The notes: generated by a model not told the origin, from the letters alone. A stretch of 64,000 nt of DNA from Pseudomonadales bacterium (GCA_020632265.1 JACKFW010000001.1:455-64454), one strand, 5' to 3'. Positions 13,862 to 54,032 are shown, numbered from the stretch's first letter. Numbers and translations are program-made.

Positions 13862-14139
13862 ATGAGTACCCCACATCTTCAGGAGTGAACCAGTTTCCCA
13901 TCACCTCCATAATCTTCTCAAGTGAGTTATAAAGTGGTTCCACCCAATTCTGCTCCAGCTCGCATAAATAAAAATCAGACCAAAATGGTCTGTTTTTTTA
14001 TTTATATGAGTTCAAATTGTTAGCGAAGACTAAATTTGAAAAATTTAGAGTTCGCGACGGGAAGGCTGAGCAATAGCGAAGCCACCCTAGTGCAAGTGAG
14101 CGAGTATCACGAGCGAATCGTGAACCCAATCGGGCTTGC
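13862..14139 (+). repeat. Island repeat module B (full-length ~280 bp copy), ending in a degenerate tRNA-Asp 3'-end copy (aacccaatcgggcttgc)
   Basis: It shares ...catcacctccataatcttctcaagtgag...ggttccacccaattc.gctc.ag...hairpin...gagttcaaattgt.agcgaag...ttcgcgacg...gagcgaatcgtgaaccc.atcggg with module C. Confidence 0.65.
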
Positions 14140-14832: not shown

Positions 14833-15057
14833 AAAAATTATTTACTTTCATTCATCAATTATACAATACTGCAATACCTATTATGTTATATTAGCCCAGG
14901 ATTTATAAACTAATCAAGAAGTATTCTTAATTTATTGCCAAATTTACTCTGGGACTAAACAAAAACCACTGCACCCACTCTCTGGTTCGTTTAAGCACCG
15001 GTTGGCGTCGCCAAATATAAAAAATAACCCTATCGGGTTCATTTTTTATATTTGATG

Positions 15058-15135
15058 AACTAGAGCGGAATTGGGTAGAACCGCTGTATGACTCACTTGA
15101 GAGGGTTGTGGAGGTGATGGATAATTGGTTTACAC
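15058..15135 (-). repeat. Inverted partial copy of the island repeat module (first half)
   Basis: The reverse complement ccatcacctccacaaccctctcaagtgagtcatacagcggttctacccaattccgctctag matches modules B and C. It is preceded (14978-15048) by a degenerate tRNA-Asp 3' half and a hairpin aaccctatcgggtt. Confidence 0.55.
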
Positions 15136-15253
15136 CAGAGGAAGTTGGGTTTGTACCTGCAATTACTTAATTTATTACCCACTTAATTATGGAACTTAAC
15201 GACAAACCCCGTCATTATTACAGCGGGGTTTGCACATTTATTGCTTAGTTTTA

Positions 15254-29051: not shown

Positions 29052-31883
29052 CTATTCCACAATTTTAAATTCTTTGCCAATTTTAAGTTTTGTTCCAGTT
29101 TTTTTTTCAATCTCAGTTTTCCATTTTTCTGGCCATTTAGAAATTTCGATAATAACATTGGTTCCTACCTTGAGACCTGCTTTTTTTCTTAATTTTTGAA
29201 TATTTCTGATTATTTCTCTAGCTTCGCCTTCTGCCTTTAAATCATTATCAATTTTGGTATTCAAAATTACTCTCATTGATTCAGTAGTTCGATGCCAATT
29301 CACTTTTTTAACATTAATTTCATCCGCTAAAACTTGCAGAATTAATTCTGTTGGTTCTGCTAGATTGACATAACAAGTTATTTCTTCAAGAGGTTGTCTG
29401 ACTTTAATTCCCGCTTCACTTCTGAGGGCATGAGATTTTTCAACAACTTTCCTAATTATATCAATTTGTTCTTCTAAGGATTTATCAATTGCTTTCGTGT
29501 CTGCTTGTGGCCAATCTGAGTGATGAACACTTGAGTTTTCATTAACTAAATTGTGCCACATTGTTTCACTAAAAAATGGTGTTATTGGAGCAAATAATTG
29601 AGCAATTTTGATTAAAACAAAACCAAATACTTCTTGAGAAGGGTTAAATTGATCGCGCAATCGATCCCTACTTCTTCTTAAATACCAGGTGGAAAGTTCG
29701 TCAATAAAGCTTATCAATCCCCTACTAGCCTTGAGGATATTATAATTGTCCATATATTTTGTTGTATCTTTAATTAATGAATTTAAGCGACTTAAAATCC
29801 ACTTATCCATCACATCACTTGATTCAGGAGATTTTGCAAGGTTAATTTGATGATCTTGATTAGCATAAAGCTTGTAAAAGGCAAATAAGTTCCACCAAAT
29901 TAAAAATACTTTTTTTCGGACATCGGAAACCTCTTTTTCATTGAAATTAAGGTTTTCAGATTTCATTACCGTAGAACTCATCAGATAAAGTCTTAAACTA
30001 TCAACTCCATATTCGTTTATTAAGAGCATAGGATCTGGATAGTTTTTTTTGGATTTACTCATTTTATTACCATCTTGAGCCAAAATTGTTCCAGTTGTAA
30101 GTATATTTTCAACTGCATTTTTATTAAATATACCTACTGAAAGAACGTGCATGGTATAGAACCACGCTCTAGTTTGAGCAATATACTCACTCACAAATTG
30201 AGCAGGATAAGTATCTTCAAATTCTTTTTTATTTTCAAATGGATAGTGTTTAGAAGCAAATGGCATTGATCCCGATTCTACCCAGCAATCAAATACTTCG
30301 GGAATTCTTGTTCCTTTGATAGTTTTTTTATCATCAATCCAAACTTCAAGATCATCTAAAAACTCACGATGAATGTCATCTATTTTTTCAACTTGTTTTG
30401 GATTTACCGCCCATTTCTTTAGTTCTTCTATTGAACCAATGACTCTAATTTGTTTGTCCTTAGAAATCCAAATAGGCATTGGTGTTCCCCAGTATCTTGA
30501 TCTTGAAATGTTCCAGTCTGGAGCTGTTTCAATACCTTTACCAAACCTTCCTTCTTTAAGATGTTTAGGATACCAATTAATATTTTCATTTTGTTGGAGT
30601 AAGTCATTTTTTAATTTTTGAACATTTATAAACCAAGCCGGAACTGCATTATAATAAAGAGGAGTCGAACATCTATAACAGAATGGATAAGAATGAGTGA
30701 TTTTTTCTTCCTTAAACATAAGACCGCGCCTAGCCAGATCTTCGTTGATTGTTTTTTCTGCATTTTTGTAAAATTTTCCCGCAACAAGTTTGACAAAAGG
30801 TAAAAATTTTCCTTCTTCACTTAGAGTTGGAACTAATGGTAAATCTTTTTTTAAGGCTAAAGCGTAATCATCCTCTCCAAAGATGGCTGCCGTGTGTACA
30901 ATTCCAGTTCCATCTTCCATGCTAACGAAATTTCCAGATAAAATTGACCACGCGTTTGGTTTTTTTGATTTTACGTAGTTAAATAAAGGCTGATAGTGTT
31001 TTCCAACTAATTGTTTTCCTTTTACTGTTTTAACAATTTTGAATTTTTTCTGAGCGAAAACTTGATTGACTAAGTCTTTGGCTACCCATAATAATTCGTT
31101 TTCGAATGCAATTTGAACGTAGTGAGCGTTTTCATCTACTGCCAAACCAACATTACCAGGTAGTGTCCATGGAGTTGTTGTCCAGGCTATCAAGTATTCA
31201 TTTTTATTTTTAGAAGTTAAATCATTTTCATTGATTTTAAATTTTATATAAACCGAAAAATCTTCAACGTTTTCATATGAGTTGTCCATTGCAATTTCAA
31301 AGTTGGATAACGGAGTTGAACATCTTGGACAATACATAACAATTTTTCGACCTTCGTATATTAGATCTTTATCGATTAATTGCTTGAAGCCCCACCATAT
31401 AGATTCCATATATGATTTATCCATGGTTTTATAATTATTTTTAAAATCTACCCATCTGCCCAATCGATCAATTATTTTTTCCCACTCAGTGTCTAATCTC
31501 ATCACTTCTCTATGGCAAGCTTGGTTAAACTTATCAATTCCAAGGTCTTCAATACCCTTTTTTCCGCCTTTTATATCTAATTGTTTCTCTATCATGTTTT
31601 CGATTGGTAATCCATGACAATCCCAGCCCCAAACTCTTTCAACTCTATATCCTTTCATGGTCCAATATCTGGGAATTACATCTTTAGACGTACTTCCAAG
31701 TAAATGTCCATAATGAGGAAGACCTGTGGCGAATGGAGGACCGTCATAAAAAACATAGGATTTTGCTTTGTCTCTCATTGAAACAGATTGTTCAAATGAT
31801 TTATTTTTTTTCCAATATTTTAAGACTGAATCTTCTAATTCTGGCAAGTTTGGTCTAACTGGCATTTGTGATAGTTTTGGCAT
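29052..31883 (-). CDS. ileS: Isoleucyl-tRNA synthetase (type 2, archaeal/eukaryote-like)
   Basis: 943 aa with a class I HIGH region in the PPFATGLPHYGH form and a KMSKS motif. Confidence 0.9.
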   Translation of the reverse strand: MPKLSQMPVRPNLPELEDSVLKYWKKNKSFEQSVSMRDKAKSYVFYDGPPFATGLPHYGHLLGSTSKDVIPRYWTMKGYRVERVWGWDCHGLPIENMIEKQLDIKGGKKGIEDLGIDKFNQACHREVMRLDTEWEKIIDRLGRWVDFKNNYKTMDKSYMESIWWGFKQLIDKDLIYEGRKIVMYCPRCSTPLSNFEIAMDNSYENVEDFSVYIKFKINENDLTSKNKNEYLIAWTTTPWTLPGNVGLAVDENAHYVQIAFENELLWVAKDLVNQVFAQKKFKIVKTVKGKQLVGKHYQPLFNYVKSKKPNAWSILSGNFVSMEDGTGIVHTAAIFGEDDYALALKKDLPLVPTLSEEGKFLPFVKLVAGKFYKNAEKTINEDLARRGLMFKEEKITHSYPFCYRCSTPLYYNAVPAWFINVQKLKNDLLQQNENINWYPKHLKEGRFGKGIETAPDWNISRSRYWGTPMPIWISKDKQIRVIGSIEELKKWAVNPKQVEKIDDIHREFLDDLEVWIDDKKTIKGTRIPEVFDCWVESGSMPFASKHYPFENKKEFEDTYPAQFVSEYIAQTRAWFYTMHVLSVGIFNKNAVENILTTGTILAQDGNKMSKSKKNYPDPMLLINEYGVDSLRLYLMSSTVMKSENLNFNEKEVSDVRKKVFLIWWNLFAFYKLYANQDHQINLAKSPESSDVMDKWILSRLNSLIKDTTKYMDNYNILKASRGLISFIDELSTWYLRRSRDRLRDQFNPSQEVFGFVLIKIAQLFAPITPFFSETMWHNLVNENSSVHHSDWPQADTKAIDKSLEEQIDIIRKVVEKSHALRSEAGIKVRQPLEEITCYVNLAEPTELILQVLADEINVKKVNWHRTTESMRVILNTKIDNDLKAEGEAREIIRNIQKLRKKAGLKVGTNVIIEISKWPEKWKTEIEKKTGTKLKIGKEFKIVE

Positions 31884-32200
31884 ATTTCCTTATGACTTAA
31901 TTAATTTAGTTAATATTAAAAAAGCCCTCTTGTAACTAGTTTATTTTCATGCGCACGACGCATTATTTTTTACTAGTTACAAGAGGGCCTTCAATTCAAA
32001 AAGAATTTTGATGGCGGTTCCACCTCTTTTATTTGAATAGAGGCGTTGATGATTCAACACTTTTTTATTCAAACATCTTATTTCCAGCTATTACGGGCAT
32101 ACCCGAAGAGATCTACTAATTTTGCGATTGGTAAATGATTTGAAATCAATTTATTTATCGCTCAACTTTCTACTCCCACCTTGTTCTGTGATTTCCTTTT
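31884..32200 (-). promoter_or_regulatory. Putative T-box riboswitch leader of ileS (Ile specifier AUC, ultrashort Stem I, transcription-attenuation type)
   Basis: On the minus strand there is a T-box-like AGAGGTGGAACCGCC (rc of 32013-32027). An antiterminator can form from AGAGG / bulge UGGAACC / GCC...GGC / CCUCU. A mutually exclusive terminator follows: a perfect 17-bp stem gccctcttgtaactagt (31924-31940 / 31972-31988) plus a U-run, about 30 nt before the RBS AAGGAA and the ATG. A short upstream hairpin GUUGA-AUCA-UCAAC (rc of 32045-32058) presents AUC+A in its loop. Confidence 0.45.
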
Positions 32201-33021: not shown

Positions 33022-33063
33022 TTTAAGTGACTTAAAAGAAATTTACAAAAATATTGAATTTTG

Positions 33064-33134
33064 AGCGGGTAAGGAGAGTCGAACTCCTCTATCCAGCTTG
33101 GGAAGCTGGCATTCTACCGATGAACTATACCCGC
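33064..33134 (-). tRNA. tRNA-Gly (anticodon CCC)
   Basis: The reverse complement gives GCGGGTA-TA-GTTC-ATCGGTA-GAAT-G-CCAGC-TTCCCAA-GCTGG-ATAG-AGGAG-TTCGACT-CTCCT-TACCCGC-T. Confidence 0.85.
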
Positions 33135-53236: not shown

Positions 53237-53470
53237 TGATTCCTTTAAAACTTAATTTCTATTAATAATACTACTATTATATTTAATTATTTGATTTGGG
53301 AGTCCTGCTAAATACCCTAAATGCTTCTTATACAAAAAAATCCCAAAGCAATAATTGCTTAGGGACCCTGCCGGGCGGTTCCACCCTAGTTCTTTTTTCA
53401 AAGCACTTTATTTTCTTGTTTAATTATGTTCCTTGCCAAAGGGACAACAAGAGATATTTAATTTTAATTA
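53237..53470 (-). promoter_or_regulatory. Putative T-box riboswitch leader of glyQS (Gly specifier GGC, ultrashort Stem I, terminator/antiterminator)
   Basis: On the minus strand there is a T-box-like AGGGTGGAACCGCC (rc of 53375-53388). An antiterminator can form from AGGG / bulge UGGAACC / GCC-CGGCAG-GGU / CCCU. A competing terminator follows: tccctaagcaat-t-attgctttggga plus U7 (rc of 53334-53365). An upstream short hairpin CCUU-UGGC-AAGG (rc of 53431-53442) presents GGC+A. A TATAAT -10 box lies near 53468-53473. The RBS is AAGGAA. Confidence 0.55.
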
Positions 53471-53489: not shown

Positions 53490-54032
53490 TCATTTAATAT
53501 TGAGATAATCAAAGCTTTTCATTTTATTATCTGAAAGAGCTGAGACATAGTCGGAAATATTTGGATATTTTGATTCGTCTGGATGTTGATATCCTAGATC
53601 AGTAATAATTCTTGAAAATGAATCTTTAATAAATTTTGCCGTAGCCGTGCTGGTTGAAATTCTTGTTCTTAAAACTAGTATATTATTGAAAGTTTCTTCT
53701 TCTAATTCTTGCTCAACAAATAATTTTTCAAAGATTTCTAACATCTGTGATAGTTGTCTAAATGAGCCCAAGGTATGATTCATTTTAGAACAATCATCAA
53801 TTAATGATGCTTGAGTTAAAATAGGAAGTGATTTTGTGCTTACTAAAAATGCGTTAATCAAATTTCCAGGTTCCAAAAAGGCTCTTTTGGAGGATTTAAT
53901 TTTTCTAACACCTTTTGCAACACAAGTTATTTTACCAAATTCTTGAGTTAAAATATTGATAATTCTATCGGTTTCACCTACGTTGGCGCGTCTCAAAACA
54001 ATTCCTTTAGTGGAGAAAGTTTTTGCTTTCAT
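53490..54032 (-). CDS. recO: DNA repair protein RecO
   Basis: 180 aa with an N-terminal OB fold (TKGIVLRRANVGETDRIINILTQEFGKITCVAKG). It is short relative to E. coli RecO but typical for small genomes. Confidence 0.8.
   Translation of the reverse strand: MKAKTFSTKGIVLRRANVGETDRIINILTQEFGKITCVAKGVRKIKSSKRAFLEPGNLINAFLVSTKSLPILTQASLIDDCSKMNHTLGSFRQLSQMLEIFEKLFVEQELEEETFNNILVLRTRISTSTATAKFIKDSFSRIITDLGYQHPDESKYPNISDYVSALSDNKMKSFDYLNIK

Follow-up and report, generated by a model that had tools for sequence, protein, structure and literature searches.

Can a T-box riboswitch control a glycyl-tRNA synthetase (GlyRS) gene with little more than a hairpin loop in place of Stem I? The question is raised by a stretch of bacterial DNA of 64,000 nt (hereafter the window), for which a sequence-only reading had proposed that the leader of the GlyRS gene (glyS) is of the T-box type, its Stem I being reduced to a minimum and showing GGC, a glycine codon, with a following A in a hairpin loop within an outer stem. 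This core reading is supported by the computational analysis reported here.

Organization of the glyS leader

The presence of a T-box-type leader upstream of the GlyRS gene was confirmed, with all of its elements on the minus strand, to which the leader coordinates given below refer. The leader occupies the 253-nt spacer (53489-53237) between a recO-like ORF (53490-54032, minus strand; stop codon 53492-53490), its upstream neighbour, and the GlyRS gene (ATG, 53236-53234), the sole visible GlyRS gene. The ORF as called (53236-51821) encodes a class II single-chain enzyme of 471 amino acids; PF00587 and PF03129 are found in its homologues, which bear the name glycine--tRNA ligase. An extended -10 promoter element, TGCTATAAT (53478-53470), was assigned from its sequence and from the same element in orthologous leaders, and the transcription start inferred from it would lie about 7 nt downstream, near 53463. 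The promoter had previously been placed inside the 3' end of recO; this position could not be upheld, as TGCTATAAT follows the recO stop codon at a distance of 12-22 nt and only a weak -35 element would overlap recO.

On the predicted transcript, the outer stem P1 pairs a 5' strand, UCUUGUU (53452-53446), with a 3' strand, AACAAGA (53420-53414), the latter being located 3-4 nt 5' of a conserved AAAG in the five leaders with a clear P1. The enclosed sequence, CCCUUUGGCAAGG, contains the specifier hairpin UCC-CUUUGGCAA-GGA (53444-53430), which is marked by a covarying closing stem and an invariant UUGGCA; GGC (53437-53435) followed by A (53434) sits in the hairpin loop, as had been proposed. The purine string AAAGUG (53409-53404) directly precedes Stem III, CUUU-GAAA-AAAG (53403-53392), and reads AAAG(U/A/C)G in all seven leaders available for comparison, matching the consensus uaaAGuG of the Rfam T-box model RF00230 with high posterior probability.

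The T-box sequence is present as AGGGUGGAACCGCC (53387-53374), in agreement with the earlier claim, and forms part of the antiterminator (53388-53360), which consists of UAGGG, the 7-nt bulge UGGAACC (53383-53377), GCCC-GGCA-GGGU and CCCUA. The bulge agrees with the earlier drawing, helix A1 pairs UAGGG with CCCUA, and helix A2 (GCCC/GGGU with a GGCA loop) has four base pairs instead of the three first drawn. The antiterminator overlaps the terminator hairpin GUCCCUAAGCAA-UUA-UUGCUUUGGGAU (53366-53340), the segment GUCCCUA being common to the terminator and the 3' half of the antiterminator, as in a mutually exclusive expression platform. Both this overlap and the run of seven U residues (53340-53334) had been anticipated, and the supposed 12-bp stem was corrected to 11 standard or wobble pairs with one U.U mismatch. 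The U-run ends 97 nt before the ATG, and the Shine-Dalgarno sequence AAGGA of the GlyRS gene (53245-53241) follows it by about 90 nt. The leader is compact: the predicted start is only about 75 nt from the T-box, and the distance from specifier to T-box is 52 nt, compared with 55-86 nt in the orthologues.

Specificity of the T-box assignment

The 12-mer GGGTGGNACCGC occurs exactly once in the 64-kb window, and four matches with at most one mismatch were found relative to 0.03 expected; these four near-matches include two coding coincidences and a second T-box upstream of ileS. Searches with RF00230 gave a weak yet specific match to the glyS leader (27.0 bits; E=0.047 at window scale; gathering score 93), which was the top match with permissive filters in the 451-nt glyS leader region (E=3.3e-4). 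Over the 64 kb only two matches were reported, each directly upstream of an aminoacyl-tRNA synthetase gene and on its coding strand (glyS and ileS), so the search that had been suggested as a check of the assignment did return a hit. Confident alignment was confined to the 3' half of the leader, comprising the purine string, Stem III, T-box and antiterminator, with a posterior probability near 1 for the antiterminator part; 78 Stem I positions were deleted, and the rest were forced onto recO coding sequence with low posterior probability. At the gathering threshold, Rfam models detected four tRNAs and no T-box leader in the window, the glyS leader falling below a cutoff that is an operational and not a structural criterion. 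A profile HMM built from six orthologous leaders, with the window excluded, had its sole window match at 53443-53331 on the minus strand (E=7e-19). The minimum free energy (MFE) of the whole leader was not unusual (z = -1.66), and a rule-based terminator scan did not flag the glyS-leader terminator, probably because of the U.U mismatch in its stem.

T-box-like 12-mers at 13934 and 15073 were rejected as T-box candidates, as they fall in paralogous small reading frames where NWVEP is encoded by aattgggtggaacc, the copies differing mostly by synonymous substitutions. These divergent frames, ..ELEQNWVEPLYNSLEKIMEVMGNWFTPEDVGYSSAVV and ..ELERNWVEPLYDSLERVVEVMDNWFTPEEVGFVPAIT, extend over 13848-~13975 (minus strand) and ~15055-15170 (plus strand), and their conservation reaches 5' of any ATG, GTG or TTG start.

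Lineage and distribution of the leader

All close homologues of the GlyRS and IleRS proteins encoded in the window came from Woesebacteria or Patescibacteria, and one GlyRS entry (P0001) is identical to the window protein. The source label Pseudomonadales is thus probably wrong, and the DNA probably derives from an ultra-small bacterium of the Patescibacteria/CPR lineage, as the sequence-only reading had suspected.

The distribution of the leader was evaluated at two groups of glyS loci. The six nearest loci tested (L001/L081, P0002, L161, L162, L163 and L164; GlyRS 77-83% identical) retain the gene order DUF4012-recO-glyS with spacers of 34-85 nt, and the T-box motif was absent within about 1.5 kb at the five of them with readable DNA; for P0002 only the length of the spacer (34 nt) is known. 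Because the six closest glyS relatives tested are without the leader, it appears to be dispensable in sister lineages. In such T-box-less relatives (L001, 1386-1472; L161, 1428-1500), a -10 element, GGCTATAAT, lies about 12 nt before the glyS ATG, which would imply a nearly leaderless mRNA and, in turn, a leader of about 200 nt that sister lineages either possess or lack in its entirety.

The second group, in which GlyRS is 72-76% identical to the window protein and 72-84% identical within the group, carries the leader in six of six proteins looked up (L165, L167-169, L170, L171/172, L173 and L176). Their upstream neighbours are Mur ligase or hypothetical genes, not recO; the leader therefore travels with glyS and not with recO. 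Conservation begins at the extended -10 element, which reads TGCTATAAT in L165, L170 and L173, TGCTATACT in L167, TGATATAAT in L171 and TGTTACAAT in L176. The RF00230 scores of the Patescibacteria glyS leaders range from 27 to 39 bits, some orthologues not being reported at all, and such values are so far below the gathering score of 93 that standard annotation would miss the whole group.

Several further loci were noted. L175 encodes the same GlyRS protein as L173; beyond about 60 nt upstream of the ATG its sequence differs and is without a T-box (L175 1-106 versus L173 1095-1203), and this difference, at a contig end, reflects either an error of assembly or a naturally occurring deletion. 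In two MAGs labelled Gammaproteobacteria (L009, 1290-1500; L012, 1210-1500; GlyRS 46% identical), a glyS T-box with a Stem I of about 50 nt was seen, whose hairpin covaries (AAGGG[GUGGCU]CCCUU and AAGAG[GUGGCU]CUCUU) and which also contains a second UUGGCU; these leaders score 39-43 bits with RF00230, below the gathering score. A scan of viral contigs for the antiterminator core gave no matches.

Conservation and covariation of the specifier module

The hexamer UUGGCA, comprising the glycine codon GGC, the A that follows it and two U residues on its 5' side, is invariant in seven of seven leaders (the window and six orthologues), which meets the check on codon conservation that the sequence-only reading had put forward. 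It is displayed by a conserved hairpin with a stem of 3-5 bp and an 8-9-nt loop, C(Y)UUGGCA(A/C), whose closing stem varies among the leaders as UCC/GGA, GUC/GGC, UCAC/GUGA, CCAC/GUGG and GUUCU/AGAAC. As full-length MAFFT alignments misplaced P1 and L176, N-padded module alignments were used instead, anchored by hand on the invariant UUGGCA and AAAG in only seven sequences; owing to this hand-anchoring, the pair counts lean toward the proposed structure.

In these alignments, P1 and the hairpin in the 9-nt register were paired in 61 of 61 cells (100%), relative to 72.5% for shuffles and 44-64% for slid partners, and compensatory changes were observed in 11 of the 12 pairs of the module. P1 alone, for which statistics were taken from five leaders since it is not clear in L165 and L167, was paired at seven of seven positions with compensatory change in all seven pairs, and MFE folds of single sequences contain it as well. 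A further hairpin within P1 generates a three-way junction in five of the seven leaders, the window and L176 being those without it. Unguided alignments gave partial recovery of the same elements: RNAalifold on a MAFFT alignment returned the 3-bp stem closing the 9-nt loop (two of three pairs compensatory) and, on the window and L176 alone, P1 with three compensatory pairs; P1 was not recovered in the unguided three-sequence set.

Other locations of the specifier were considered and rejected. GGA-A (53431-53428) as an alternative glycine specifier is not conserved, its orthologues having GUGA or GUGG. At the canonical site, on the 3' side of an internal loop just above P1, the window would have AUU or UUA, a non-conserved reading that mismatches the gene. 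The idea that recO conceals a long Stem I was discarded, as the upstream genes differ in the orthologues and conservation starts only at the -10 element.

Conservation and energetics of the antiterminator and terminator

The 27-nt antiterminator core is nearly invariant, with all paired and bulge residues unchanged in the seven leaders and AGGGUGGAACCGCCC...GGGUCCCU invariant throughout. This invariance agrees with the expectation stated in the sequence-only reading for the UGGAACC bulge context (unchanged in seven of seven) and establishes conservation of helices A1 and A2; it also means that no covariation signal can be obtained from the T-box, bulge and antiterminator residues. All helices that vary do covary. 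The four basal pairs of Stem III were paired in 96% of cells across the seven leaders, three of the four being compensatory, and the terminator was paired in 87% of cells, with covarying inner pairs. Taken together, Stem III and the terminator were paired in 89.8% of 98 cells relative to 71.5% for shuffles and 36-52% for slid partners, with six compensatory pairs and a covariation score of 0.59 versus 0.23.

The energies of the competing states, whose comparison had also been suggested as a check, rank the terminator as the more stable. Evaluated as helices, the terminator and antiterminator have energies of -12.9 and -11.2 kcal/mol, respectively, and for the whole 3' domain the terminator-state MFE is -25.6 kcal/mol compared with -13.1 kcal/mol for the nascent antiterminator state. 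This order corresponds to the usual default-off logic of T-boxes.

Further 3', the heptamer UCCCAAA (53301-53295) is complementary to UUUGGGA in the 3' arm of the terminator. Equivalent boxes were noted, on inspection of the sequences only, in L171, L173, L176 and partly L165, which with the window makes four or five leaders out of seven; they lie some 30-60 nt 3' of the terminator. L170 and L167, both of which have short 5'UTRs, are without such a box. In transcripts that have passed the terminator, the box could provide a new pairing partner for the 3' arm. It may also not be part of the switch.

Cognate tRNA and proposed mechanism

The only tRNA-Gly gene in the window (33063-33134) has the anticodon CCC within the loop UUCCCAA; its discriminator base is U73, and CCA is not encoded. 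The UGGA of the bulge fits its U73, and its loop fits the UU..AA flanks of the specifier; this is the CCC and not the GCC isoacceptor. No tRNA-Gly(GCC) was seen in the window, and no tRNA gene was detected in the 12 loci scanned, among them every CPR glyS locus apart from L163/L164 and duplicates of loci already covered. The loop of a hypothetical GCC isoacceptor, UUGCCAA, would be the full complement of UUGGCAA.

We consider it likely that the leader is a functional, tRNA-Gly-sensing transcription attenuator of the GlyRS gene with an apical-loop specifier and a minimal decoding domain, tRNA binding and readthrough being inferred. On this model, the first approximately 50 nt of the transcript would fold into the 7-bp P1 carrying the 3-bp hairpin, whose 9-nt loop would display GGC and then A to the anticodon of tRNA-Gly(GCC). 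The flanking UU may pair additionally with A37 and A38 of the tRNA, a possibility that arises because UUGGCAA is the exact complement of the UUGCCAA anticodon loop. Stem III and the bulge UGGA are then predicted to pair with the free U73-C-C-A 3' end of uncharged tRNA, which would stabilize the weaker antiterminator so that the polymerase reads through; charged tRNA would be unable to do so, and the stronger terminator with its U-run would form. This regulatory outcome, including tRNA-dependent readthrough, and the extended loop-loop pairing are likewise inferred.

Glycine T-boxes can lack Stem II since GGC:GCC is a strong all-G.C duplex (PMC7583486), and in this leader that duplex, together with pairing beyond the codon, might compensate for both the missing platform and the missing Stem II. 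Transcriptional T-boxes generally require a long Stem I with its elbow-binding platform, and a truncated Stem I has hardly any affinity for tRNA when Stem II is missing (PMC7583486); for these reasons, fast capture of tRNA by so small a domain is unproven.

Alternative explanations

The mode of codon display could differ from that proposed above. As first drawn, the hairpin has a 4-bp CCUU/AAGG stem and a UGGC tetraloop within the outer stem, where the tRNA would read GGC. This fold is the single-sequence MFE structure in the window, L171 and L173 and, together with P1, exceeds the open-loop register in stability by about 1.9 kcal/mol (-6.4 versus -4.5 kcal/mol); over the seven leaders, however, its cells are paired at 77.8%, equal to shuffles, with no compensatory pairs. 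It cannot form in L176, is reduced to 3 bp and a 3-nt loop in L165 and L167, and would be unable to offer three stacked bases plus a 3' purine to an anticodon. We regard it as an unlikely decoding form, which may represent a closed resting state of the hairpin. The outer stem and the position of GGC in a loop are therefore retained from the original drawing, while the tetraloop CCUU-UGGC-AAGG is dismissed as conserved pairing and lacks covariation. Loss of decoding altogether would leave a decaying or partial T-box, in which function is confined to the discriminator half, made up of Stem III, T-box and terminator, this half either sensing uncharged tRNA in general or attenuating constitutively, and the 5' hairpin no longer decodes. 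Such decay would be compatible with the absence of the canonical Stem I apparatus, the low RF00230 scores and the lack of the leader in the six closest relatives tested, but an invariant UUGGCA is unexpected in a decaying 5' half, two helices have been kept by compensatory change across GlyRS proteins that are 16-28% different, and the codon matches the regulated gene in all seven leaders; decay is accordingly improbable.

The remaining possibilities remove the tRNA from the mechanism. A protein such as GlyRS might bind the hairpin loop, with the T-box-like 3' half merely inherited and not tRNA-driven, an idea without direct evidence that was raised since so minimal an RNA may bind tRNA too weakly alone (PMC7583486). 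The loop holds the GGC codon and not the GCC anticodon that GlyRS recognizes, and hence does not mimic an anticodon; the UGGA bulge, which reads U73-CCA, never varies; and no candidate binding protein emerged, so that we rate this explanation as very unlikely. An ordinary terminator of recO that looks like a T-box by chance can be practically excluded as an explanation: a hairpin with a U7 run does lie downstream of recO and its RF00230 score is far below the gathering score, yet the element accompanies glyS behind other upstream genes in the orthologues and is missing from relatives in which recO precedes glyS, the motif is expected only about 0.03 times per window, and the orthologue-derived HMM recovers the leader at E=7e-19. 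The tRNA-sensing attenuator with an apical-loop specifier thus remains the preferred reading.

Implications of a minimal glycine T-box

What makes the variant notable is its contrast with a rule of the field, by which transcriptional T-boxes depend on a long Stem I and ultrashort versions are translational and Stem II-dependent (PMC7583486); a conserved, covarying, terminator-based glycine T-box with neither a long Stem I nor Stem II would put this rule to the test. As a very small natural scaffold, it would further be of use for the study of how codon and anticodon recognize each other without the ribosome. Furthermore, it indicates that at least some CPR/Patescibacteria, with their reduced genomes and few known regulators, control aminoacyl-tRNA synthetase genes through tRNA-sensing RNAs. 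In a full-text literature search of incomplete coverage, which did not include TBDB or Rfam-full, T-boxes were not connected with CPR or Patescibacteria in any paper. Such leaders escape RF00230 when its gathering score is applied, and a clade-specific covariance model could reveal many more; the presence of the leader in some lineages and its clean absence in sisters provide a natural comparison for why such control is kept or lost.

A more far-reaching interpretation is put forward only tentatively, as a possibility that we do not yet favour: the leader may be the simplest natural T-box architecture so far (about 125 nt from start to U-run), being transcriptional and without elbow platform or Stem II, catching tRNA-Gly by extended anticodon-loop kissing (UUGGCAA:UUGCCAA, up to 5-7 pairs instead of 3) and belonging to a Patescibacteria style of glyS and ileS T-boxes that is missed by the Rfam model. 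Both aminoacyl-tRNA synthetase leaders in the window, those of glyS and ileS, were matched by RF00230, and the ileS leader of the L165 genome is also a T-box.

Comparison with known T-box systems

The structural hallmarks of a T-box are present in the glyS leader: a T-box and antiterminator bulge UGGNACC, a competing terminator, a codon-presenting Stem I with its purine, and Stem III with a purine string. The Bacillota glyQS/glyQ T-boxes (B. subtilis, G. kaustophilus and O. iheyensis) resemble it in their location 5' of a glycyl-tRNA synthetase gene, the GGC specifier followed by A, the UGGA bulge (which in the window fits U73 of the CCC isoacceptor of tRNA-Gly), the lack of a Stem II domain (PMC7583486), the purine string with Stem III, and the competition between antiterminator and terminator. 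Unlike theirs, its Stem I is not of the long form: the K-turn, the internal loop in which an S-turn holds the specifier, and the AG bulge and distal loop that make up the elbow platform are all missing, and its codon is placed in an 8-9-nt apical loop on a 3-5-bp hairpin with UU, in place of the GAA of the S-turn, as its 5' flank. Stem II and the IIA/B pseudoknot are missing as well; between P1 and Stem III there is neither a CCGUUA-type block nor a second conserved domain, this segment consisting of just 4 nt and AAAGNG in the window and L176. As there is no platform, the leader does not fall within the canonical long-Stem-I class.

Short versions of Stem I mount the specifier in the apical loop, and ultrashort versions are translational and dependent on Stem II (PMC7583486). 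The likeness to the actinobacterial ultrashort-Stem-I ileS T-boxes that the sequence-only reading had pointed out, on the account of Sherwood et al. 2015 given in PMC7583486, extends to the apical-loop specifier and the absence of an elbow platform and stops there. As described in that account, those T-boxes are Ile-specific and translational, with Shine-Dalgarno sequestration and an essential Stem II and IIA/B pseudoknot, whereas the window glyS leader has a terminator with a U7 run, no Stem II or pseudoknot, and Gly specificity; for lack of Stem II, with a terminator in place of Shine-Dalgarno sequestration and with Gly instead of Ile, it cannot be assigned to that class either. On the same account, an ultrashort Stem I has been described so far only for translational actinobacterial ileS T-boxes retaining Stem II. 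The absence of K-turn, elbow platform and Stem II thus defines the leader as a terminator-based glycine T-box with an ultrashort Stem I.

The nearest kin of the glyS leader is found in the ileS leaders of the same lineage. In the window, the second T-box-like leader (~31884-32160, minus strand) lies upstream of the IleRS gene (29052-31883) and is matched by RF00230 at ~31981-32158 (23.2 bits; E=0.46 at window scale). It contains AAAGUG with Stem III, AGAGGUGGAACCGCC, a IIA/B-like block CGGGUAUGCCCGUAA and a 17-bp terminator with a U6 run, and it reads UGGA where the orthologue L177 reads UGGU, the base expected for A73 of tRNA-Ile. In L177 (1205-1500), the apical loop of GUUGA[UCAUCGC]UCAAC displays an Ile codon, and this hairpin shares its enclosing outer stem with another one; the corresponding loop is only tentative in the window copy. 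The ileS leaders of this lineage thus share with the glyS leaders the control by a terminator and, in L177, the junction layout of most glyS leaders, and they differ in keeping a Stem IIA/B-like block, CGGGUA(U/A)GCCCGUAA, that the glyS leaders do without.
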